The translations under genes and the position numbers were made by a program. Shown here piece by piece: positions 5,873 through 59,116 of a stretch of DNA of 64,000 nucleotides; the first letter of the stretch is position 1; every line of letters starts with the position of its first letter. The DNA is from Dictyostelium discoideum (Eukaryota): NCBI GenBank assembly GCA_000004695.1, contig CM000152.2, positions 2,272,001 to 2,336,000 on the forward strand, given 5' to 3'. The notes below the pieces were generated by a model, which made no database searches, had not been told where the DNA came from, and saw nothing but the letters and a program-made list of their open reading frames with translations.

Positions 5873-6445
5873 TGGAATTCTATTAATTTTTTTAAAAAAA
5901 TAAAAAAAAAAAATTTCTTTTTGTTGCTATCAATATCAAAAAATGAAATTTTTATTTTTTTTTTTTTTTTATTTTATTTTTTTTTTTTTTTTTTATTTTT
6001 TTTTTTTTTATTTTATTTTTTTATTTTAAAATATCTGAATCCTGCAAAAATAATCTGATTTTTATATTTTTTGATTATATTTTTTAATATGTGTTGTCCC
6101 AAGGTTAACCAAATAAAAAGATTTAAAAATAATTTGGTTAATAATAAAAATTAATTGGTAATAAAAAAAAATATAAAATAAAAAAAAACCCAATTTAATA
6201 ATTTATTAATTTTATAAAAAAAAAATTATAAGAAGAGTGGTCGCATTTAAAAAAAAATATAAAATAAAATTAAAATTTTTTAAAATTAATTATTTTTTGA
6301 TTGTTTTTTTTGATTGTTTTTTTGATTGTTTTTTTGATTGTTTTTTTTTTTTTTTTATAAAATTAAAACATCATCAACCACCCAAAGAAATTATTAGAGT
6401 GGAAAGATGGAATTAAAAATAAAAAAGAAAATAAAAAAGAAAATA

Positions 6446-6446
6446 A

Positions 6447-6509
<63 letters not shown>

Positions 6510-6510
6510 A
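6446..6510. repeat. (ATAA)n microsatellite, about 16 units
   Basis: aaataaataaataaataaa... in the intergenic region. Confidence 0.9.
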
Positions 6511-6572
6511 ATTTAATCTTTTTTAAATAAATAAAAAAATAATAATTTGAATAAATTTATTTATTATTTTTA

Positions 6573-8186
6573 TTATAAACCAATTGGTTTATATTGTCTA
6601 TCTCTTTTAACTTTTCTAACAACTAAAACTGCAACTATAACAATTAAGAAAAATCCACCAATGACACCAAATGAAATTCCAACTTTTTGACCAGTTGTTA
6701 ATCCGTTTGTATTATCACTAGAGATTTCGAAATCATCTTTTTCACATTGTAATTTTTTAGATTGATTAATAACAGTACAAAAATATGAAACTGATGGTAA
6801 GCAATCTATACCAAAAGAATTTACAGTATTGGTTTCATTAATTTTAAAAGTAGTACTTGAAAGGTTAATTTTAGAGTTTGTACAATAAACTGAAGGACCA
6901 TGATCATCTTGTTTAGCATAGTTTCCAATGAAGCTAGTACTGTTAATAGTTATACTACTTGAGTAGATATCAATTGCACCACCACTAACTGCTGCGGTAT
7001 TATTAATGAATTGAGATCCAATGATTGTAGTTGGAGTATCGAGAAAAGCATAATTTGAAGAATTTATATTGATAGCACCACCATTTTGGGCAAAGTTATT
7101 GGTGAATATAGAGTTTTTAACTAAACATTCAGTGGCAGTGAGTGAAATAGCACCACCAGAAGAACCTGGTGATTTTTGGTTGTTATTATTTGCAAATAAG
7201 CAACTATCAACTGTAATTAAACCAGAATTTAAACCAAAGATTGGAGCAGTATTTAAATTGTTTACAAAATTACAATTTAAGAAATAAGTCTTTGTAAAAT
7301 AATTTGTGAAAGCAAAACCAATACCACCTAAAGCATTTGTGAAATTTACATTTGTAAATTTGAATTGTGGTGTAGTGAGGAACTCAGATGCTAAAAAGAA
7401 GGCTGCATTAGAAGCAATTGAATCCAATTTTGAATTTGTCATTGTCAATAGACCATTTCTCATATAAATAATACCACCAGATGCTGAGTTTCTAATATTG
7501 CTAAATGAACATTGATCAATTGTAATTACAACATTTAAATCAAAAGCATAAAGTACACCACCGGAAATTTTTGAAGATGTTGAATTATTAAATGTGGTCT
7601 TACTGATATTAATTACACTGTTGGCTGGTGGGTAATCAGATTCGCCATCGGTTGAATCAATTGCAATTGAACCACCACCAATTGTTGCATTATTATTATT
7701 GAATACACAATTATTGATTTCCAATTGTATATTTGATGTACCATTATTGAAAAGTACTGGTCCATATGGTTTATTACCATTTTGAAATGTAATACCAGTG
7801 AATGAAACTATACTTGTGTCATAGATTGATGATGGTTCAATTCTAATAAATGAATCAGTAGCATTTGAAAGATCAATAATTACATCATTGGTTTCTTTAT
7901 TATTATTTACAAGAGTTATAGATTGGTTGGTCACTTTTCCAAATGTTGCTTGATTAATCAAATATGTACCTGGTTCAATATTCATTGTTATGCTTTCAAA
8001 TTGTCCACCACATGATAAAATTGATTGACTAATACTTTGACATGGTGTGGCTGCTGCAGTACCACAATTTTCTGTCAATCCAGATTTTGAGTCTGTATAA
8101 CTAATACATTGTTCTCCTCCCAATACTATATTATCACCAAATATATAAACATATAAAAATAATAATGCAATAATTAATTTATACAT
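6573..8186 (-). CDS. Secreted / type I membrane protein with parallel beta-helix (PMP-type GGAI...FxxN) repeats, 537 aa
   Basis: ATG at 8186-8184. N-terminal signal peptide MYKLIIALLFLYVYIFG. Repeated GGAI / GGSIAI / GGII motifs and Asn-rich beta-helix-like repeats. Single C-terminal TM segment (VGISFGVIGGFFLIVIVAVLVV) followed by a basic tail RKVKRDRQYKPIGL. Continuous ORF with non-AT-biased codon use. Confidence 0.8.
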   Translation of the reverse strand: MYKLIIALLFLYVYIFGDNIVLGGEQCISYTDSKSGLTENCGTAAATPCQSISQSILSCGGQFESITMNIEPGTYLINQATFGKVTNQSITLVNNNKETNDVIIDLSNATDSFIRIEPSSIYDTSIVSFTGITFQNGNKPYGPVLFNNGTSNIQLEINNCVFNNNNATIGGGSIAIDSTDGESDYPPANSVINISKTTFNNSTSSKISGGVLYAFDLNVVITIDQCSFSNIRNSASGGIIYMRNGLLTMTNSKLDSIASNAAFFLASEFLTTPQFKFTNVNFTNALGGIGFAFTNYFTKTYFLNCNFVNNLNTAPIFGLNSGLITVDSCLFANNNNQKSPGSSGGAISLTATECLVKNSIFTNNFAQNGGAININSSNYAFLDTPTTIIGSQFINNTAAVSGGAIDIYSSSITINSTSFIGNYAKQDDHGPSVYCTNSKINLSSTTFKINETNTVNSFGIDCLPSVSYFCTVINQSKKLQCEKDDFEISSDNTNGLTTGQKVGISFGVIGGFFLIVIVAVLVVRKVKRDRQYKPIGL

Positions 8187-14921: not shown

Positions 14922-20826
<5,905 letters not shown>

Positions 20827-21477
20827 TTTTTTTTTTTTTTTAATTTTTAATTATTTAAGTTTTGGTATGAATTTTTACCTTTGCGTTTTCTTTATTTTTT
20901 AGAAAAAAAAAAAAAAACAAATAATAATAACTTCATATACGAAGATTATTGTTTTGTAAGCGATAATTATTTAGAAAAACAATTGGAAAAAAAAAAAAAA
21001 AAATTAAAAAAAGAAAAAAAAAATAAATTAAAATAAAAAAAAATTACAAAAAAAAATTTGAGTAGATATTATAATAATTGATTGACGAGGTTTCGACAAA
21101 GGCTATAAAAAAAAAAAAATTCAACCAATCAAATCTTTTGGATATAGATTTTTTTTTTTGAATTTTTACAAAAAAAAAAAAAAAAAATTGAAAAATCTAA
21201 GTATGCTATTAAAATCATTTTAGATGGTCCAATCAACAGATTGTTTTTTAGGTTTAAAAATCATTATCATAATAACCAACTGTTTTTTTTTTTTAAAATT
21301 AAAAAACGTAAGGTGGGCCAAGTTTATTCCTTTTTATTGTAATTTTTTATCACTTTTTTTTTTTCTGACTTTTTATTTTTTTTTTTTTTTTTTTAATTTT
21401 AGCGTACCTAAAACTTTTTTTTAATTTTTATTTTTTTTTTTATTTTTATTTTTTTTTATATTTTTTTTTATTTCGAA

Positions 21478-24400
21478 TCAATCATCATTACTGGTTGGAG
21501 TGTTGACTGATGAATTATTGGGTGATTCGAAATCATTATTTGAATACTCGGATGGTGAATTGGAATTAGTATTAATTGAATTTTGACGAGAATCGCTAAC
21601 CATTGTCGATAATCTCGTTCCTTTTTCTCTCTTTGAGCCACCTCTACTGCTACCCCTAGTTGTTCCACTTGCGGTGTCAGCAACATTATTTTTAGCACGT
21701 TGGTCAAAGCAGAATAAAATACTACATGCTGGAATAATTTCAGTGATTATTAAACCAATGAAACTGAATACCATTGAATTTACATTTCCTGCTACTAAAA
21801 TCAAAACAAAAGCACAATGTAATAAAAACCCAATTGAGCAAACGAATGAAAGTATGAAAATTTTTCTTTGATGATTTGATTTTGAGCCCACTTTAATATT
21901 GGTTGAACGCATAACAATGAATAAACGGCCACCCAAGTAAATGAATGCTGCACCCATAATTAATGAAATTAATGCTTGAATCACCGCATAAACAATACTA
22001 ACTACACGTTGTGGTGTTGAACTTTCAATTGGAATTATAATACGTGAACCACAATCATTGGTTGGATTTGATTTGGTATATTGGAAAACCAATACAATTG
22101 CAATGAATAATAGGTAGAGGAATGCATTGATTACAAATACAATTGTAAATAATCTGTTTGTTAGATTATCAGCAGATTTATTCTTTTTCAATACCAGGAA
22201 AACAATGACATACCAAAGTACTAAAAGAATATTAAATGCTGTAAAGTAAATAAATGTTGGTAATACCACAAGAATGTAATCAATGATTGGACTATCGGAT
22301 AAATTACCACTTGGCATAATAAAGAAATAAATGGCTCTAATTGTGATAAATAGTGTTACGACACCAATTAAAAGATGAGTTAATTGGAATTTTCTTTTAA
22401 TTGATATATTTCTTTGTTTATATCTTGCAATTGCGATTAAACATAGTTCAAATCCACCCCACAACGCGACAACCAAAAAGAAGGTGGCCAATGTATACAT
22501 TAATGCCTTTGATGTCGAGTCGAATGCTTGTTTTCTTTCATCCTCCCATTCATCCATACGATTAATTGGGAAATAAATTGGATTACCACCTTCAATGGTA
22601 ACAATTGAACATAACATTAAAACTTCATCTTTACCTGCAGTTACACTATCCTCTGAAATTTGAGTGAAAACTTTACTTGATTGAATTGGATTTGGTGTTT
22701 TTGATTCAATATCATAACTACCATCATTTATTTGAATTGCAAAATCATAAATTGGATATTTTGAATTATTTGTTCCAGATATTGTTAAACAAATGGTTGC
22801 TTCATTTATACCATCTTGTGATTTAATCATAATACCATCTCCTAATAATGTACCAATGATTGCATCATTAGAGTTTTTAACACCATATTTATCAGCTTTC
22901 TTATAGGATACGAAATTTGATGCTAATGATTCTTTTTGTGCTGATGTATAGATTTCTCTTGAAATTTGTGAAATTGATAAAGATTGACAACTTTGAGAGA
23001 TTGAATCATTTGAAAATTCAATTTTACCATAATCGAATGAAAATGATGAATTTACACCTGCGCATGGTTTAGTTTGACCTAATAATGGTGTTGATGCAGT
23101 GAAACATTGTGAGCCACCTTTACCTGAACAACTACATGTAATTGAGTTCAAATTTGATTGTAATCTTTCCATACGACAATATGCTTCTGAACGGAATAAA
23201 TCTGCAACTTGAGCTTTTGCTGCTTTTGTAACACTCTTGTAGAATAGTTGATAATTGAATACATCTCTATTTTCATTTGGAATGAATGATTTTGCAGTAT
23301 TCCAAACAATTGGTTTATAAACACCTGGTAACCATGTGGCTGCTTCCCATTGGAATTTATTTGTCCATTTATTGAATGAATCTATACATGCTTCACATGT
23401 TTCTTGGTTCATTTCATTAAAATGGAAGTTGTATGGTAAATTGGTTTCATATGATTCTAAAATTTTACAACCCATTTGTAATGTACATGAACTTTGATTT
23501 CTTGCTGGTGTCCACCATACACCACCATCATCTTCACAATCGATTTGAGTTAAAACCATTGGATTAATAGAGTAGCAACCATTTGGTGAATCTTGTTGTT
23601 CAGACTCCTTACATGAAATTAAATATTGATAATTATCATGTGGGAACACACATCTACCCAATCCAACAGGATAATGATTATTTGCAAGAGAACTAAAGTA
23701 AAAGTCATCGGAACAAGTACCTGCTGCTGTTAAACATTCTTGTTCAGTTTGACATTCAATTGGTTTTAGTGAACAAAGTTTTACATTATTTAATGGTCCA
23801 GAACATTCACCTTCAAGTTTTGTTGAACAATCTATCCATGTATAATTTGTACCAGTGGCAGTACATTGTTGTTCATCCGTTGCAGATTTTAATATACAAA
23901 CATTTGCTTCGGTTGACCATTCAGTTGTACCTACAGGATTATCTAATGCTGCACAATTTGTGCTATTCATTCCGGTTTGTAAAATTGCACAATAATCATC
24001 TTGATTATTTGCTAAACTTGAAGAGCATTCATAACCACATGGTACTGAACATTTACCTTTAGAATTACAATTACTTTCGCTTGTTGCTGTTAAATCATAT
24101 TCACCATTTGGTAAAAGACAAATTTGATTTTGAGTTTGACATGATGTTTGATCTGTAAATTCAGTAGCTACATGACATTGAGTATCTTCATTTGTACAAA
24201 CACCACAAAAATCTTTTAAAACACAAGCATCTTCACATGACTCTTCAATGCCATTTTCAGTATATGTATTATCTTTGCAAGACAAGTATGGACAAATACC
24301 CCAATCAGTACAATTATCAACATGAGAAACTAATCTAAAATCCCAATGTGCATAAATTGACTCAATACAAGTATCATGATAGGTAATACATGATTCATCA

Positions 24401-26845
24401 ATACATTCTTGATGTTGAACTGCATAACAATCATCTACTTGGAATCCTGGTGACCAAATAAATGTTGAACGATCTTTAATATAATTATGACCAATACAAT
24501 CCTCTCTTATATGGTTATTGAAAACTTTAGTTACAACATCATCATTTACTGTTGTTGAACCTTCTAACAATGAGAATAATGTACCAGGTGATAAGTGTAA
24601 TAGTACACATTTTACATATTCAAAATCGATTGTATCAAAATCTGGTATACAAGTTCTTGAGTATAAATTACATTCACCATTTCCATATCCATTACAATCT
24701 GTATCATTTGAACAAAATGGTGATACTAATTTACTCTTGCAATCTCTTAAAACTGTAATTGATGTTAATTCTAATTTTTTAGGTTCAATTGATGGCACAG
24801 CACAATCATCAATACCAGTTAACGAACTACCATAATCTGATAATACTGATGAGGTACATTCTTGACTTGAACATTGTTCACTTACTAAACTTTTATTCAC
24901 CGATATGAATTGTGTAACATTTTTTAAAACAATTGATGGATTACAACATTGATAATATCTAGCCAATTCTGAACAACATGGGTCAGTTTTATATTCTGGA
25001 TCAGTGACGAAATGTGAACAATATTTTGTTGATATATTCTTTGCAACAGTTTCCATATGTAATAATGATAATGCTTTATTACTACAACCTATCCATGCAT
25101 CACTAATAGTCAATGAATCTAAACTATATCTATAATTATTTAATTCATCAATATCCGAAACATTAAATAGTGTTGTCTCTGTTTTTTCAATAAGTCCCAA
25201 AACTTTTTCAAATTCTGTATTATTACATTCTAAATTTTTTTCTTTAAAATTAATAGTTAAATCAATTGGCTAAAGTAATAATAATAATAATAATAAAAAA
25301 TAAATGTTAATAATTTTTTAAAAAATAAATGTTAATAATTTTTTAAAAAATAAAAATAAAAATTTAATATTATTATTTACATTATTATTTTCATCAAAAA
25401 TAGTTCCAAGGAATTGTAAAGATGATTCTAAAATTGTTGAATAATTTTCAATAAAATCACCACCAACTGAAAGAATAAATGCAACTTGAAATGATTTTGG
25501 TTTAAAAGTATTTAATGGTGGCTGTAAAATATTTAAATAGTTAAATGAAGTTGAATCAATGAAACGAGCAGATACTGGCCATAATGGATTTATATCGTAT
25601 TGTGGATAAATTGCGGTGAATGTAGTGCTAGTTGTAAAAGCTGCTGAATCATAATCAATAGTTGGCAAACGTAAACGTACACTATTAACCAATGCTAAAG
25701 TACCAGGTTGTGTTGATAATGATCCCAATGAATATCTATACCTATTACCTTGATTTGTAATTGAAAATGAATAATCTGTTTCATAAACTGTATATACACT
25801 TAAATAAATAATTAATGGTGTTGTACTATCAACTGGTTCCAAATATAATACCATATTATTTTCATCTAAAAAAAAAATAAAAAATAAAAAATAAAAAAAC
25901 AATTAATAAATTAATAAATTAATAAATTAATAAAATTATTATTATTTAAATACGTTACAATCTTGTTCTAATTTCCAAGTTGTATAACTGGCATTTGGAA
26001 ATATATATTCGTTTGAAATAAATATTGAAGTACTTTGAAAAATTGAAGGGAAATTAAAATAATAGAAACCAGCATTTTCAACTTGAAATGAATAATGTTG
26101 ATATTGATTATCTGTTAAGAAACCATAGACAACTTGACCAATAGTTACACATATATGGTCAGATGATACTGGTTGACAATTTGAAGTGTCGACAGGTTCA
26201 CTTGGTACATCATTTGAACGAATGATCATTTTAAAAGTATAATTGTTACTAAGTGGTTGAATTCTTAAAAAGTAAGTGTCACGACTCCAAGAATCTGTGA
26301 ATGTAAAATGTTCAGTTCTATTCCAATTATCTGATGGACATATATTGAATAACATATTTCTTTCAGGTGAAAAACCAGATGAATAACGTGAATAGCTTGA
26401 TGATGGTGTTTTACCATTAATATAAACTTGACCATATCCAGAGATTGGTAAAACTTTTAAAAATAAACCTTTACAACCAAATGAATCGGCTTTCATTCTA
26501 AAAAATAGATCCTCTGATGTAGTATAGATTTTTTCTGTATCCGATTCAATAGTTGTCCATTCGCCATTACAAATATTCTCAGTGACATTACATGCATTTG
26601 TACAACTTGGATCACGGATTTTCGGACATTCGTTCATATCTGTATAATCACATGTACAATCTATATTCTTATCACTTGGAATATCTGTACAATTATAGTT
26701 TGGACATCCCAATGAATCATATAAATAAATATCTTGATCAAATTCAACATCAATCAATGCATATGATAAATCGGTTCCCAATAAGTTAACATCTTTTTTT
26801 ATAATAGTTGACGATTTAACTTCAATACCTATTTACAATTATTTT

Positions 26846-27660: not shown

Positions 27661-28678
27661 CAAAGCATTTTTTTTTTTTTTTTAATTCGATCTCACCTAA
27701 AATCTTTTCAAAGAGTTTTGGTAATTTTATTTGATCATGAGATGTATGATAGATTTTTTGTTAGGTTTGATGATCATAATTCTCCACACCAAAAAAAATA
27801 AAATAATAAGAATTTATTCATTCTGGTTACAAAACAAAAAATTGAACAAAAATAATTATAAAGGAATTTCACTTTTTAATTTTTTTTTTTTTTTTTTTTT
27901 TTTTCGGATGAATTGTTTTATTAGAAAAAAAACATGTGGGTCAGAAAACAAAAAAAAAAGACTATAAATACTATTTTAAAATTAATTTTTTTTATTTTTT
28001 TTTTATTTTGAGGGGCGAAAAAAAAAAAGATATTTTTGATAAGAACATTTCAATTTAAATTTTTAATTTTTCTTTCACCTTTTTTTTTTTTTTTTTTAAT
28101 TATTAATTTATATTTTTCTTTTTTTCCTTGTTTTTTTAAGAAAGCATTTTTTAATTTTTTAATATCAATTTTTTATTAATTTATATATTTTTTTTTTTCT
28201 TGTTTTTTTTTTTTTTTTTGGTCTACCAATTTTTTTTATATTTTTTTTTTTAAATATTAAAAGATTAATATTTAAAGGAATTTAATAGTGTCTTTTTTTT
28301 TTTTTTTTTTTTTTTTTTTTGGCGTATTCCAAAAGTCTAAGAATCTCTTCAAGAATTTGATAGGGTTATAAAAAATAAAATAAGAAAAACGATTCACGCT
28401 TTACAGCATTCATATAATATTAATTGTGTGTTCCTTTATTTATTATGATCAATAATACATTAAAAAAAAAGAAAAAAATAAAAAAAAAATAAAAAAATAA
28501 AAAATAAAACAAAAGGACAACTCGCGAAGGGTTTTTTTTTGGAGAAAAATTCAGAGTAATTGCTGTAAGGCGAGCTTATTTAAAAATTAAAAAAAATCTA
28601 TTAATTAGTAAAAAAAATTTTAATAATAAAATTTTTATGGGATTTTTTTTTTTAATTTTTTTTTTTTGCCTCAGCTCC

Positions 28679-28718
<40 letters not shown>

Positions 28719-30145
28719 TTATTTAAAACAAATTAATAAACTATTTTTATTTGTATAAATGAAATTGAAAGTAGATTGTATTCTAGTTTATCATTTGATA
28801 AATGATATTTTAGTTAATTGTAATATTGAAAATCATGATTCAACTTTTTAAATGCCCCATGTTATAACTAAATAAATGTGGTGTTGGGATAATTACAAAC
28901 TATGAATTTGTAACTACCATAATATTAGGTTTCAAACCACTAACACCAAAATCGCTTGCACAATATGCGTCGATACCACATGATTGGATAATATCACCAA
29001 ATGCAGTTTAACATAACCAACAATATCGGATTCTGTGGAGCAAGGGAGGTAACTTCCATTTCTAAGAGACTTCCATATTAAATTGGTGCATGGAAGTGGT
29101 TTTATATCGATATAAAATTTCAAAACTTTTCGATACCAAAGTTGCTGGTTGATGATTTTTCGCAACAGATTGGATATGATATGATTGAGCCCGACCTCTC
29201 ACCCAAAGGAGGTAAAGCATGTTCAAAAATTTTCATCTTTGCTTCTGTATTATGTAAATTGTATATTAGTTAAAAAGTTTTGAAATTAATTTAAATTTTA
29301 AAATCATATTTTAAAAGGGATTGACATACCATATAAAACATAAAGATGAGTTGGAATATTGTTTTCATTTAATTTGGTTTCAATATCTAATTCATTTTCG
29401 CCCAATCCACAACCTACTGGTTGTTTATCGAAAATTGATAAATCTTTTGTTTTATATTGTTTTTCATCATTGCTAATATATTCTGCTATTATTTTTAAAA
29501 CATCAAATATTGTATTTACTGATTCAAATTTAAATTTGATCTTTTTTTTTATTTAAAAAAACAAAACAACTGAAAGAAACCATTATTATAATTACTATTT
29601 TATAAAATAGTTGAAAAGAAATTTGAAATATTAAAAAAAAACAATAAAAATTAAAAACCAATCCAAATAATTTAAATGAAGAGTTTCTTTTTTTTTTTTT
29701 TTTTTGATATTGACCAGTTAGGATTTCTAGCCGACTTGCATGTAATTCCCCAATTGTGTTTTTATGGACCTCGTTAATTCGTGGGAAGACCAAGATTAAA
29801 AAATTCACATCAAAACTCTTTTCTTATTTGATTATTTAATTTTTAAAAAAAGAAAAACAAATACAAAAAAAAAAAAAGGTATCGATAGTTGAGATATTTC
29901 CAACAATTGTTTGATTTTTAAAAAAATATTGCAAAATGTTTTTTTTTTTTTTGAGTGAATTGTTTTATTAGAAAAAAAAAAAAGTGGTTCAGAAAAAATG
30001 AAAAAAAAAAAATCTATAAATATTTTAATTTTTTTTTTTTTATTTTTTATTTAATTCGAGGTTTTGGGTGAAAAAAAAAAAAAAAGATATTTTTGATCAC
30101 AAATATTTGCAGAACAAAACATTTTCTTTTTTCTTTCTTTCTTTT

Positions 30146-30176
<31 letters not shown>

Positions 30177-30295
30177 GGTTAATAATTTATATATTTTTTT
30201 TCATTGTTTTAAGAAAACATTTATTAATAAATAAAAATATTATTGATATCCTGTAACATAATAAAAAAATAAAAAAATAAAAAAAATAAAAAAAA

Positions 30296-33061
30296 ATGGA
30301 AGATGAAGTCACTAAACATAAGGCAATTATATCAAATAATGAAGCCTATGCAATTATTAGAGCGATATTATGTTTATATTCAGTGAATAAAACAGAAGAA
30401 TTTAAAAATAGTGCCAATGAAAAAACAATGGGACCAGTATTAAAGAAAGCATTTGGATTATCAGATGAACAATATAATGAAATCAGTGAAAAGATATTAG
30501 AATATTCTACAGAAGAAATTACAATCTCTGAATTACAATTAAGATATGCTTGGAAAGATAATCATCCAATTTATAAAAGTAAAGCATTCAAAGATCCAGA
30601 TGGACATACTAAATGGCAAAAAAAAGAATTTCAAGATATTAAAAAATTATTAAAAGATCCATCACTTTTAGATTTAAATACAAAATTACAATTAAATGAA
30701 AAAAACAATAATAATAATAATAACAATGAAAATAATTTAAAACCCTCAATTCAAGATGTATTTAATATTACATTAAAAAAACATACAATTGAAAAATCAA
30801 ATGGTGGTAAAGATAATATTCATATTGGTTATAAGATATTAGTTAATGCATTCCTTCAATATAGTTCACAAGAAGTTTATAGAGAAGATAGACAACATCC
30901 GATTAAATCATCATTATTAAAATCAAATGATTTATTTAATCTTGGTTTATTACCAGAGTTTACATGGATTTTAAATGAATATTCAATACTCTATGGTATT
31001 AGAGATTTCTATAGATTGCTTGTAATTTTCGATGTCCTAACAACTAGATTCGATGATAATTTAAATCAATTAAATTTATTATCAAATTGTTTTAAAAAAT
31101 TACAATCAATTAGAAAATTAATTCAAAATAATGAAACAATTGATGGTAGTGGTGGTAGTAATGGTATTAATTTAAATAATCAAAATGATTTTATAACTGA
31201 AGATGAAAATGATTTATTTAATAAAATTTCATCAAATTTATTTAATAATTTATTAATTAGAATTGGTAATTATAGAATTTGTTTTACACCAAATCAAGTT
31301 GAAAAATTACCACAACGCCAATCACAACATTATCAAAGATTAATTAAATCAATACCATTAACATTTGCATTAAATTTAATGAAATATATTGTTGATGAAT
31401 TATTCTCTGATTTAATTGATTTTCAAAGTGTACTTAAAAAAGCAATCATTGAAGCCAATGAAAAAGAATACATTAGATCAATGGAACATTTAGAAGCATT
31501 ATATAATGGTCAATTAAATTCAAATTATCAACAAATATTTTTATTATCAAAAGTTATAAATGATATAATTGATAAATGGTTTGATTGGGAAATTTATTAT
31601 TTTGATTTATCATTTTCTGAATTTTTAAAATTAAATAATAATCAAAATAATAATAATAACCAAAATAATAATAATCAAAAAATTCATTTAGAAATTATAT
31701 TTGAAACATTTTCAAATTTTATAAATAAATCAGTTTTAAATATTTATAAACGTTATTCAAATGAAGAACATACAGTTAGAAATAGTAAAAGTGGTAAATT
31801 GGAAGCTGCACCATGGATAACATGTTTATTTTCAGAGTTAATACCATCTTTGGTCAAATATAATGAGATTGTATTTGGTTTGTTTAAAAAGAAACCAATA
31901 CCATTAGAAGGTGAAATTAGTTTTTTAACAGGTCAGTTCATTTTAAATAGAATTTCAATTTTAAATACAAATATTAAACATTTAATAAAACATCAAGAAT
32001 GGAAACCAAATGGTAAAGGTGTCTTTCATAGTTCTTGTCCTATTGATTTCTTTGAATTCTTAACTCAATGTTATAGTGGTATTCAATCTTTGGAAATTAA
32101 ACTATCAATTCCATCCAATCCAATGACCAGATCATTTGGTACTAATCTAGGTGACACTTTCTTATTCTTTGTTAAAGGTATAAGAGCAGTGATTTTGGAA
32201 GATTTACCAATTGATCAACAAAAAATCATTTCAAATGTAATTGATAATGCAATCTCAAATCAAGTTACACCTAAACAGCTATTCCAAACATTGGTTGAAA
32301 ATGTTAGATTGCCAAAGTTATCAAGTTATAATATCACCGAGAGAATGTGTTTACAAATTAATGATATTGAACAATCTCGTGGTTTACTCTTGGATTTTGA
32401 TGATAAATATAATAATATCTTTAGAAATTCATTAAATGAATTATTCACAACTTTAAAAGATCATTGGAATTGTCTCTTGACTTATTATGTCTACAAAATG
32501 AATTGCTATATTAAACCAATCATTCAAAGCATTTCATTATCTTTGAATGATAATTCAACATCAAACTATACCAAAGAGTTATCCAATTTCATCGAAATTA
32601 ATCTTTCATTATCAAATAAAAAATTACAAGCAAATTTATTCCCTGTATTATTAAAAAGGTTATTTCAAAGTATTGTAAATAATATGTTGGAAATCATTTT
32701 ACCACCAAATAAAAAGAACTATAATAAAATGGTTGTTGAAAAATCACTATCAAATTTTAAAGGTTTAATGGATGAATTAACAAAAGTTTTCCATGGTGAA
32801 GGCGATAAAACAAGTTCCTATTTCGAATTAACTCTTGATGATTATACAAGAATTAAAAAAGTTATTGAACTCTACTCTTTCGAACCTCAACAACTCATTG
32901 AATTTCATAAAATACTTTTACGTTCTCATTCAAAATCAATTATCACCGAAAATGAAATTTCAAATTCAAATAATCTTTTAGATGAATCTTTTACAATTAT
33001 GATCTTTAAAAGAAGTGAAAGTAAAGAAATTGATAATTATTTAAAAAATTCAAATAAATAA
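30296..33061 (+). CDS. Hypothetical large (921 aa) predicted all-helical cytosolic protein, function unknown
   Basis: Single continuous ORF with a real ATG in an A-rich context (aaaaaaaATGG), balanced amino-acid composition and only short poly-N stretches. No domain recognisable from memory. Confidence 0.75.
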   Translation: MEDEVTKHKAIISNNEAYAIIRAILCLYSVNKTEEFKNSANEKTMGPVLKKAFGLSDEQYNEISEKILEYSTEEITISELQLRYAWKDNHPIYKSKAFKDPDGHTKWQKKEFQDIKKLLKDPSLLDLNTKLQLNEKNNNNNNNNENNLKPSIQDVFNITLKKHTIEKSNGGKDNIHIGYKILVNAFLQYSSQEVYREDRQHPIKSSLLKSNDLFNLGLLPEFTWILNEYSILYGIRDFYRLLVIFDVLTTRFDDNLNQLNLLSNCFKKLQSIRKLIQNNETIDGSGGSNGINLNNQNDFITEDENDLFNKISSNLFNNLLIRIGNYRICFTPNQVEKLPQRQSQHYQRLIKSIPLTFALNLMKYIVDELFSDLIDFQSVLKKAIIEANEKEYIRSMEHLEALYNGQLNSNYQQIFLLSKVINDIIDKWFDWEIYYFDLSFSEFLKLNNNQNNNNNQNNNNQKIHLEIIFETFSNFINKSVLNIYKRYSNEEHTVRNSKSGKLEAAPWITCLFSELIPSLVKYNEIVFGLFKKKPIPLEGEISFLTGQFILNRISILNTNIKHLIKHQEWKPNGKGVFHSSCPIDFFEFLTQCYSGIQSLEIKLSIPSNPMTRSFGTNLGDTFLFFVKGIRAVILEDLPIDQQKIISNVIDNAISNQVTPKQLFQTLVENVRLPKLSSYNITERMCLQINDIEQSRGLLLDFDDKYNNIFRNSLNELFTTLKDHWNCLLTYYVYKMNCYIKPIIQSISLSLNDNSTSNYTKELSNFIEINLSLSNKKLQANLFPVLLKRLFQSIVNNMLEIILPPNKKNYNKMVVEKSLSNFKGLMDELTKVFHGEGDKTSSYFELTLDDYTRIKKVIELYSFEPQQLIEFHKILLRSHSKSIITENEISNSNNLLDESFTIMIFKRSESKEIDNYLKNSNK

Positions 33062-41264: not shown

Positions 41265-42626
41265 TTAATAAAATAACACCATAGTATCTAGCAAATCAGA
41301 TAAAAAAGGAAGATGAATTGAATCTAAACCCTTTTTCCAAGCATTTGTAGTACTATCGACTTTAACTAAATGTCTAAGTTTCTCTTTGGTATCGGATAAT
41401 ATTGAGATAGAGATTCGACTAATTATTAATTGTACACCTTGAATTATACCACGTTGTATTGAGATACCACAAGAGGAGGATAGATTAATTTTATAAGATT
41501 TTGATATACTTTCTCTCATCTTTTTAATTTGATTTGATTCGATATTTGGTCTTTTAAAAAGTGCATACAATATAGACTTTACTCGAGTAATATATTTCCT
41601 ATAGCCAATTGTGAAACTACTATTATTTATACATGTTACATTTGAATTCATTAAAGAAATATACCACCCATTCCTATTTGGTATATCATAGAATAGTATA
41701 TTTGAAAAATGACTACTAACATTATCCCAAATCAATGGCAATCTATCACTATTATTACAAAATATATCAAATGCAATAACTTGACCCAACTGATTCAATT
41801 TCTTTTCACCACCATACCCTGAAAAGTATTCTTTATAATCTAAATCTTTAAATGATTTACCATTTGGTGCATATTCCATAACTATTTATTTTTTTAAAAA
41901 AAAAAAAAAATAATAAAATATTATTAGTATTAATGTTTTTTTTTTTTTTTTATTTTTTATTTTTTTAAAAAAAAAGAACTTACTTAAAAAAAATGATTTT
42001 AATAATTCCAATTTAATATAATCATATAAACTTTTATTAGTTTTTGAAGATATTGTTAAAAGTGATCTTGACATTTGAATATATTCATCATTTGAGTATT
42101 CTAATAATCTCATTTCGGGTATTGGTAATTTTAAGATACTTTCTAAAACAGATGCATAAACTTCTTGAACAATAGTTGTTGATGATTTTAATAAAACTTG
42201 ATTGTACTCACATTTATTATTTAAAAATGTTGCAATTAAAAATATATTTGAACTACCTAAATCAAGTTTATCAACACTAATTAATGATGACCAGTCAATA
42301 CAATGTATATTTGAATATTGAATCATTGGAATATATGAATTATTATTTTTATTTTTATTTTTATTATTATTATTATTATTATTATTTATTGAATTATTAT
42401 TATTATTAATATTATTATTATTTACACTATTATTACCAATATTAATATTATTATTATTTTCTATATTTTCTTCATTTATTTTATTCTCAATTATTATATT
42501 ATTTTTTATATCAGTACAAGTATTAGAGGTTGAATCATTTGTTGATTTTTTAATTTCTATATTATTTTTCTTATTTTTTATCTTTTCAAAAAAAAAGTTT
42601 TTTTTAAACACTTTTATTTTATTCAT
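41265..42626 (-). CDS. Actin-fragmin-kinase-like / atypical-kinase-like protein, about 419 aa: join(42626..41984,41881..41265)
   Basis: ATG 42626. Exon 1 ends ..LLKSFFL S (TTA A|GTAAGT, 41983-41978, phase 1). Acceptor aaataaatag|TT ATG at 41882/41881 (phase 1) gives ..SFFL-I-MEYAPNGKSFKDL.. The motif QLGQVIAFDIFCNNSDRLPLIWDN resembles the catalytic-loop region of actin-fragmin kinase family members (recalled, not verified). 102-bp intron. Confidence 0.6.
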
Positions 42627-58230: not shown

Positions 58231-58676
58231 TTTTTTTTTTTTTAAAATTTGCGACCCAACCATTCCACAAACAAATGGTTTTTTTTTTTTTTTTTAATTT
58301 TGATTTTTTTAATATTTTTTATTTTTATTTTTATTTTTATTTTTATTTTTATTTTTTTTTATCGATACGAATTATTCCAAAAACAAATGGGTTTTTTTTA
58401 TTTTTCTTTTTTTATTTTTTATTTTTTTTTTATTTTTAATTTTATTTTGGCAAGTGGATTTTGCACCATTCAAAATTTTGACCTTTTTTTTTTTTTTTTT
58501 TATTTTTTTTGTTTTTTAAGTTATTATTATAATTGATTATTATCTTTTTATTAATACTAATTCTATTACTTTTATTTAAATCTATTTTTTATTATAAATA
58601 ATTTTAAGTCTCACAAAACTTTTTACTTAAAAAGGAAAAAGCCGAGAATAGCTAAAAATTTTAAATTTCATCAATA

Positions 58677-58748
58677 GTTTCGATAGCTCAGTGGAAGAGC
58701 AAGCGACTGCAAATCGTTAGGTCGCCAGTTCAATCCTGGTTCGGAACT
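58677..58748 (+). tRNA. tRNA-Cys (anticodon GCA), 72 nt
   Basis: The cloverleaf folds by hand: acceptor GTTTCGA/TCGGAAC (one G-T wobble). D-stem GCTC/GAGC with loop AGTGGAA. Anticodon stem AGCGA/TCGTT with loop CTGCAAA, anticodon GCA. Variable loop AGGTC. T-stem GCCAG/CTGGT with loop TTCAATC (B-box-like). Discriminator T. Followed by a T-run. Confidence 0.9.
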
Positions 58749-58751
58749 TTC

Positions 58752-58758: not shown

Positions 58759-59116
58759 TTTGAGATGGGGTCTCCGAACTTCGTATTTTATAAAAAATTG
58801 TTATTTTCGTCTTGGTAGCCATAAACATACAATAAAAACCAATGGCTACTACATTTTAAAATTAAAATTCTTTTTTTAGTTTAAATTACCAAATAACTAC
58901 TTTACTTTTTAAAATTAGAATTAATAAATAAACTATTAATTATTGTTTATTTCCTTTAATGGATAAACACTGATTAATCAATATTAATAAAAAAAAAAGA
59001 AAAAAAAAACACAATTGGTGGACTGCAAATTAACGTGGTCCATAATTCATTTAATTAATACAGTTTTATTAATTGATTAATTTATCAAATTTTTAAATAC
59101 TGCATTAAAATGTAAT

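Follow-up and report, generated by a model that had tools for sequence, protein, structure and literature searches.

A non-processed, internally deleted relic of a DUF5898-family gene very probably underlies a GC-normal island in a Dictyostelium discoideum intergenic spacer

The closest described relatives of the element reported here are the Dictyostelium genes of the DUF5898 (PF19250) family; DUF5898 is included in the Pfam PKinase clan (PMC9758233). The parent genes are ~1.8 kb long, contain two introns, and encode proteins of ~540 amino acids (aa). The parent in AX4, DDB_G0271368, carries the annotation of a hypothetical protein of 305 aa. We analyzed a stretch of 64,000 nucleotides (nt) of the D. 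discoideum genome (assembly GCA_000004695.1, contig CM000152.2, positions 2,272,001 to 2,336,000 of the forward strand), referred to below as the window and numbered from its first letter. Minus-strand segment 29676-28694 of the window is, with high confidence, a non-processed, DNA-duplicated pseudogene of the DUF5898 family. The window copy and the AX4 parent are at different loci (CM142509.1 and chromosome 2, respectively). The original prediction for this region had described 28860-29830 as a coding-like island and had offered a decayed gene, a transposon fragment, a structured non-coding RNA locus, or an unannotated small gene with non-canonical exons as explanations, choosing none. The first of these proved correct on the basis of DUF5898-family homology, a parental intron, frameshifts, and a deletion.

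The parent protein is predicted to consist of a poorly structured N-terminal part of ~110 aa, followed by a nuclease-like domain of PD-(D/E)xK type and, at the C-terminus, the DUF5898 domain with a kinase fold. The AlphaFold model of the parent has a mean predicted local distance difference test (pLDDT) score of 73; residues 1-112 have pLDDT <50, residues 113-260 form an alpha/beta domain, and residues ~310-540 model as a protein-kinase fold whose top PDB match is Rio2 (E 1e-5). The family alignment showed conserved E, PD, and E-V-K columns (a PD-(D/E)xK-type motif), followed by kinase-like motifs. The parent proteins also gave a weak match to HSDR_N (E 3e-4 to 7e-4), under the Pfam cut-off.

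A protein homology search, the check proposed along with the original prediction, was performed against 5.8 billion proteins. The concatenated minus-strand fragments matched six DUF5898-family proteins, all from Dictyostelium, with E values of 7e-56 to 6.5e-19, which puts the coding-like signal well outside chance expectation. Pfam placed PF19250 at the C-terminus of five of the six, namely those longer than 305 aa. Frameshift-aware protein-to-DNA alignment over 186-196 residues showed 77% identity to KAM9972606.1 (P0003) and 70% identity to a further member (P0004). The alignment starts at the family initiator, where the window reads MVSFSCFVFLNKKKDQI and the family MVSFSCIVYLNNKKDEI, and homology ends at family residue ~198. 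No second DUF5898-family copy was found elsewhere in the window by tblastn, and no second DNA copy of the core was found there by blastn. When 32 six-frame fragments were compared with the rest of the window, no match to a neighbouring gene was obtained (best tblastn E 0.17). An origin from one of the neighbouring genes was rejected on these grounds.

For comparison, the loci of five members of the family (L002-L006) were retrieved; L002 and L003 are the orthologous parent locus in two other D. discoideum strains. Splicing of L002 exons 6001-6253, 6332-7416, and 7502-7786 reproduced KAM9969105.1 (P0002) exactly. In blastn alignments, window 29656-28903 (minus strand) showed 81% DNA identity to L002 5914-6672, and 82-85% identity to L003, in two pieces. 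The window intron lies at the parental phase-1 position, corresponding to L002 intron 1 (6254-6331). The GTATGT donor recognized in the original prediction is present at 29329-29324 and matches the position of parent intron 1; the AG-bounded continuation beginning EAKMKIFEHALPPLGERSGS starts at 29244, as had been proposed, and its acceptor matches that of the same intron. Similarity extends beyond the gene on both sides. Upstream, the sequence from window 29656, 29657, or 29676 to the ATG aligns with L002, L003, and L004 from positions 5914, 5920, and 5909, respectively, i.e., from 86-92 nt upstream of their ATGs. Downstream, window 28906-28721 matches L003 7776-7953 (84.4% identity, E 4e-51), and 28819-28694 matches L002 7781-7904 (79.5%, E 2e-23). 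The copy therefore has the features of a non-processed pseudogene: the intron is kept, the alignable flank extends for ~90 nt on the 5' side and for ~210 nt on the 3' side, and there is no 3' poly(A) tail. Feature coordinates are listed in Table 1.

Table 1. Coordinates of the DUF5898-family relic and of surrounding features in the window
Feature	Position	Strand	Basis or remark
Spacer, 3.5 kb	from the last seven-transmembrane (7TM; THH1/TOM1-3) gene, first exon ending 26781 (minus strand), to the 921-aa gene		
R1, upstream ~290-bp direct-repeat copy of the 921-aa gene promoter region	27892-28155	+	blastn
Class I RNA gene, outside the originally predicted segment	28518-28575	-	RF01414, 43.6 bits against a gathering threshold of 41.5; full-length; contains CCUUACAGCAA
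Dictyostelium upstream sequence element (DUSE), promoter element TCCCATAA	28635-28642	-	60 nt upstream of the Class I RNA start
Parent 3' flank, copied with the gene	28694-28903	-	blastn to L003 and L002
Deletion junction, ~1.15 kb of parent gone	28903/28904	-	L002 and L003 alignments
Exon 2, first 341 nt	28904-29244	-	81-85% nucleotide identity to L002/L003
Intron 1, 85 nt, GTATGT...ACAG, phase 1	29245-29329	-	three-way DNA alignment
Exon 1 remnant	29330-29583	-	ATG 29583-29581 (MVSFSCFVFLNKKKDQI), +1 frameshift, then IKFKFESVN...THLYVLY; tblastn and frameshift-aware alignment
5' flank (promoter-proximal), copied with the parent	29584-29676	-	blastn alignment
Second GC-rich block, 38% G+C, outside the pseudogene	29704-29800		A18 run at 29686-29703 between the block and the copied 5' flank
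R2, downstream direct-repeat copy, contiguous with the 921-aa MHD2-domain gene	29939-30228	+	blastn

The copy is disabled in several ways. At the deletion junction, window 28904 aligns with L002 6672, and the sequence from 28906 onward aligns with L003 from position 7776, 38 nt after the L003 stop codon. The missing segment takes in intron 2 together with 1,030 coding nt and reaches ~37 nt past the stop. In consequence, 63% of the coding sequence is gone, including the E-x-K (E-V-K) motif and the whole kinase-like DUF5898 domain, and Pfam detected no DUF5898 domain in any frame. In the part that remains, comparison with the L002 coding sequence revealed six indels (+1 at 29534, +3 at 29185-29183, +1 at 29171, +1 at 29112, -3 at 29056, and -1 at 29008), four of which, at 29534 (an extra T), 29171, 29112, and 29008, break the frame. 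Because of these indels, frame 0 from the ATG reads MVSFSCFVFLNKKKDQI and then meets a stop after 17 codons. Since translation from the retained ATG ends there, the relic cannot make a family-like protein. The nuclease-like PD aspartate is changed to asparagine (KPNIMV), while STESD is kept. Thus, of the features of a functional member, homology was found; a DUF5898 domain, an intact E...PD...ExK set, and an uninterrupted frame were absent. Substitutions relative to L002 are spread evenly over the three codon positions (14.0, 13.0, and 14.6%), whereas paralogs L004-L006 show a third-position excess (about 20, 15, and 26-29%), which points to relaxed constraint, although with low power. These observations suggest that the relic has probably lost its function.

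All features named in the original prediction are present, apart from minor adjustments of values and positions. The minus-strand stop-free stretch IKFKFESVNT...THLYVLYG is present, running stop-to-stop from 29552 to 29307; its exon end, however, is at 29330 (TATG) rather than 29345. The second exon was recognized from its AG-bounded start, but its proposed tail ICCEKSSTSNFGIEKF is read out of frame after a frameshift and is not the true C-terminus. The 77-aa open reading frame (ORF) (28932-29165) and the 92-aa ORF (29530-29808), both on the minus strand, do exist. They overlap the coding remnant because the family frame jumps among all three reading frames, and they are shifted-frame pieces of one broken coding sequence.

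Several points weigh against the assignment as a dead gene copy or limit it. The frameshifts could in principle be assembly errors, as a single assembly was seen. Such errors are unlikely, because three of the four frame-breaking indels are outside homopolymer runs and the neighbouring ORFs of 921, 1240, and 1253 codons are uninterrupted; the 1.15-kb deletion is independent of the frameshifts. The codon-position test is weak, with ~80 substitutions in an N-terminal region that is fast-evolving throughout the family. A transcript from the retained promoter-proximal region may have a non-coding or regulatory role. Finally, the GC-rich block at 29704-29800, which lies within the originally predicted segment, is not explained by the pseudogene.

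The compositional island was real but narrower than had been proposed. Segment 28860-29830 has an overall G+C content of 26.9%, not 35-40%, against 13.5-16% in the flanks. In 200-nt intervals, a G+C fraction of 0.36-0.37 was found only at 28900-29199; the value was 0.25-0.27 at 29600-29899 and dropped to 0.145-0.24 between these two regions. By part, G+C is 35.8% in the exon 2 remnant, 38.1% in the 29704-29800 block, and 22% in exon 1. The composition of 28904-29244 is GC-normal because this stretch was once coding and its base content has not yet drifted to that of the spacer. The parent coding sequence has 30.7% G+C (23.5% at third codon positions), and neighbouring Dictyostelium genes have 23-31%. 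The codons that had been called atypical and GC-rich are inherited from the parent gene, which reads GAG AAG TCA GGC at the same place. A horizontal origin, considered because of these codons, is ruled out since the G+C content of the parent falls inside the range of the neighbouring genes.

The spacer was compared with that of Dictyostelium firmibasis, in which THH1/TOM1-3 genes are likewise followed by the MHD2 gene (88% amino-acid identity). The orthologous D. firmibasis spacer is 1.1 kb long and gave no DUF5898 match. In the window, the relic lies between two direct repeats, R1 and R2, which are 72-75% identical (blastn E 9e-42) and share motifs including GAATTGTTTTATTAG and the TATA-like CTATAAATA. 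The repeat is single-copy in D. firmibasis (L007 9676-9990), and the ~1.8 kb between R1 and R2 (28156-29938), comprising the Class I RNA gene, the pseudogene, and the 29704-29800 block, is absent from that species. A ~2-kb insertion with spacer duplication on the branch leading to D. discoideum would fit this arrangement, and R1-R2 recombination that deleted the block from D. firmibasis would fit it equally well. At the D. purpureum locus the gene order differs, with alpha-kinase genes upstream, so that insertion and loss are not decidable from there. A third candidate repeat copy at 41896-41993 was rejected as low-complexity intron sequence.

Divergence between the pseudogene and its parent is 15-19%, and that between adjacent D. 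discoideum and D. firmibasis coding sequences is 17-18%. Because the two values are about equal, the sequences suggest that the duplication occurred around or after the split of these species. A plausible course is that a copy of the parent gene landed in the 7TM-MHD2 spacer, bringing along ~90 nt of its 5' flank and 200 nt or more of its 3' flank. The copy would then have lost ~1.15 kb internally, and with it the nuclease E-x-K motif as well as the entire kinase-like domain, and would also have gained the four frame-breaking indels and the PD-to-PN change.

Other explanations of the segment were weighed against this origin as a dead duplicate. A live, unannotated gene, with exons 1 and 2 encoding a truncated N-terminal DUF5898-like protein and the frameshifts being assembly errors or bypassed, would be in keeping with the retained ATG, ~90 nt of upstream flank, canonical splice signals, and the exon 1 frame, which is open over 72 codons. 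An automated gene call on the source assembly even reaches window 29591; that call (L001 1-5296), however, is a 5,288-residue fusion of 7TM (THH1/TOM1-3) genes with relic exon 1 and is an artefact to which the relic gave rise. With a stop 17 codons after the ATG, four frame-breaking indels within ~600 nt (three of them outside homopolymers), flat substitutions across codon positions, and ~63% of the coding sequence deleted, we regard a live gene, including the small gene with non-canonical exons of the original prediction, as very unlikely. Even a repaired product would be mostly the part modelled as disordered (residues 1-112, pLDDT <50) plus half a nuclease domain with a mutated PD. The least probable explanation, and a most doubtful one, is a structured non-coding RNA locus whose hairpins are functional. 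The hairpin described originally does exist (CTTCCAT at 29052-58 and 29071-77, and ATGGAAG at 29091-97, 13 nt past the second copy), the minus strand of 28990-29160 folds better than its shuffles (z = -2.7; 1 of 200 shuffles as good), and a genuine non-coding RNA gene, the Class I RNA gene, lies 120 nt past the pseudogene 3' flank. Yet only this one of four folds stands out: the plus strand gave z = -0.8, and the 29700-29830 block gave z = +0.5 and +1.6. The 9-bp hairpin stem is specific to the window copy and is missing from the homologous segments of L002 and L003, and no DUSE is present at the correct distance from any candidate start inside the region. At E <= 10, an Rfam search of 28860-29830 yielded only a chance-level snoRNA match (22.5 bits against a gathering threshold of 50); no tRNA (ARAGORN) and no Rfam family at the gathering threshold was found inside this segment. 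Descent from coding sequence is enough to explain the sequence in full.

It is also improbable, though somewhat less so, that the DUF5898 unit, or the whole 28156-29938 block, is a transposon or part of one. The family is dispersed: its copies are at unrelated loci, and ~2.1-kb units of 93% identity are shared by three D. cf. discoideum loci, two of them in one genome. Several copies are degenerate; P0003 lacks ~53 residues including PD...ExK, and P0005 and P0006 are truncated or rearranged. The block in the window has direct repeats on both sides, has no counterpart in D. firmibasis, and includes the 29704-29800 segment, which terminates in an A18 run and has an 18-nt motif in common with DNA lying downstream of a tRNA gene. 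In contrast, Pfam analysis of the six family proteins revealed only DUF5898 and the sub-threshold HSDR_N match, and neither these proteins nor the window fragments contain a transposase, integrase, or reverse transcriptase. The introns are kept, hence the copy is not a retrocopy, and no terminal inverted repeats were found where homology between the paralogs ends. R1 and R2 derive from the promoter region at this locus, present only once in D. firmibasis, indicating duplicated target sequence rather than element termini. To our knowledge, a 290-bp duplication far exceeds any transposon target-site duplication. The transposon fragment of the original prediction is not supported for the pseudogene, since Pfam revealed no transposase or reverse-transcriptase homology, the Dictyostelium repeat library lying outside this search; the separate 29704-29800 block may still be such a fragment. 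A related proposal, that the DUF5898 genes are a selfish or conflict-related family of mobile, defence, or self-recognition type, has a slim chance of being correct. If it were true, DUF5898 would spread as a ~2.1-kb unit, turn over fast, and differ in presence between close species, and the relic, bracketed together with a Class I RNA gene, would record one insertion by an unusual repair- or replication-based mechanism. The relic itself is an ordinary pseudogene, a duplicate with frameshifts and an internal deletion, and not a new gene, an RNA, or a recognisable transposon.

The parent family is small. A search with full-length P0002 matched only 17 proteins, which belong to D. discoideum strains, D. 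cf. discoideum, and D. purpureum or are metagenomic sequences (a small number) or a EukProt entry (one); there was no D. firmibasis protein among them. Upstream of the parent gene, the two strains differ in length (L003 5545-5914, L002 5701-5914), L003 being ~150 bases longer. The extra L003 bases include a B-box-like GGTTCGATTCC and an A22 run, and ARAGORN called no tRNA there.

The plus strand of the relic gave one domain candidate. At 29082-29270, the translation KRLPY*IGAWKWFYIDI resembles ERLCFQIEQAHWFYEDF of Dcp2 box A (PF05026). The Pfam match (E 0.005) scored 17.5 bits, short of the cut-off of 28; the top two PDB matches were both Dcp2 (E 0.58 and 1.5). The match was judged to be due to chance and was ruled out: it is sub-threshold, contains an in-frame stop, has no downstream Nudix domain, and is antisense to the supported exon 2 remnant.

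Two further elements were found beside the relic. The 29704-29800 block showed nothing significant against L002-L006 (the best match, 26 nt to L003, was equalled by 14 of 500 shuffles), and it had no match in the D. firmibasis spacer or in Rfam. Its 18-nt motif AATTAACGAGGTCCATAA (29779-29762) recurs at 17 of 18 positions at 59028-59045, and AAAAACACAATTGG, a 14-nt match, recurs at 59005-59018; these matches sit ~260-300 nt past the tRNA-Cys gene (58676-58749). L003 5800-5870 contains a stretch of weaker similarity with an A-run after it. The block may be a fragment of a dispersed repeat. The other element is the Class I RNA gene, ~120 nt beyond the pseudogene 3' flank. The position of its DUSE agrees with the expected distance of ~60 nt (PMC7919456). 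No Class I RNA was found at the DUF5898 parent loci or in the D. firmibasis spacer. ARAGORN and Rfam identified only two RNA genes in the window, this one and the tRNA-Cys at 58676.

On one side of the spacer, tandem paralogous 7TM genes with THH1/TOM1-3 domains occupy 14922-26781 on the minus strand (with ORFs of 1253 and 1240 codons and additional exons upstream); this array is also kept in D. firmibasis. On the other side, the 921-aa ORF (30296-33061) encodes an MHD2-domain protein and is encoded exactly on CM142509.1 of assembly GCA_054883475.1. In the gene call of that assembly, the dead exon is fused to the 7TM genes. The relic is of value chiefly for annotation, where it deserves a pseudogene label and accounts for the anomalous composition and a number of spurious ORFs. 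It also provides a dated example of probable spacer growth in D. discoideum: the spacer is ~3.5 kb, compared with 1.1 kb in D. firmibasis, because of the ~2-kb block with the gene relic and the Class I RNA gene. The remaining interest lies in this lineage-specific block bracketed by duplicated spacer sequence and in the parent family, a small, fast-turnover, uncharacterised nuclease-plus-kinase-like family to which the relic draws attention.

Compared with known systems, the relic shares with DDB_G0271368, KAM9969105.1, KAM9972606.1, and DICPUDRAFT_158253 the MVSFSC start, the N-terminal ~200 codons, the phase-1 intron, and the flanks. It differs from these DUF5898 genes in lacking 63% of the coding sequence, in its four frameshifts, and in its locus. 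Likeness to the PD-(D/E)xK nuclease superfamily and to the PKL fold, seen in the motif columns, the weak HSDR_N match, and the kinase-fold model, belongs to the parent proteins and not to the relic, which keeps only the first half of the nuclease-like domain and has PN in place of PD. The gene at 28518-28575 resembles Dictyostelium Class I RNA genes (RF01414) in its full-model match, 11-nt motif, and DUSE 60 nt upstream, and has no sequence in common with the pseudogene. Like non-processed pseudogenes in general, the window copy has kept its intron and flanks, carries several disabling mutations and even codon-position substitutions, and is absent from the sister-species site. It differs from them only in its setting: it shares a ~1.8-kb block with a Class I RNA gene, and a ~290-bp spacer duplication brackets that block.

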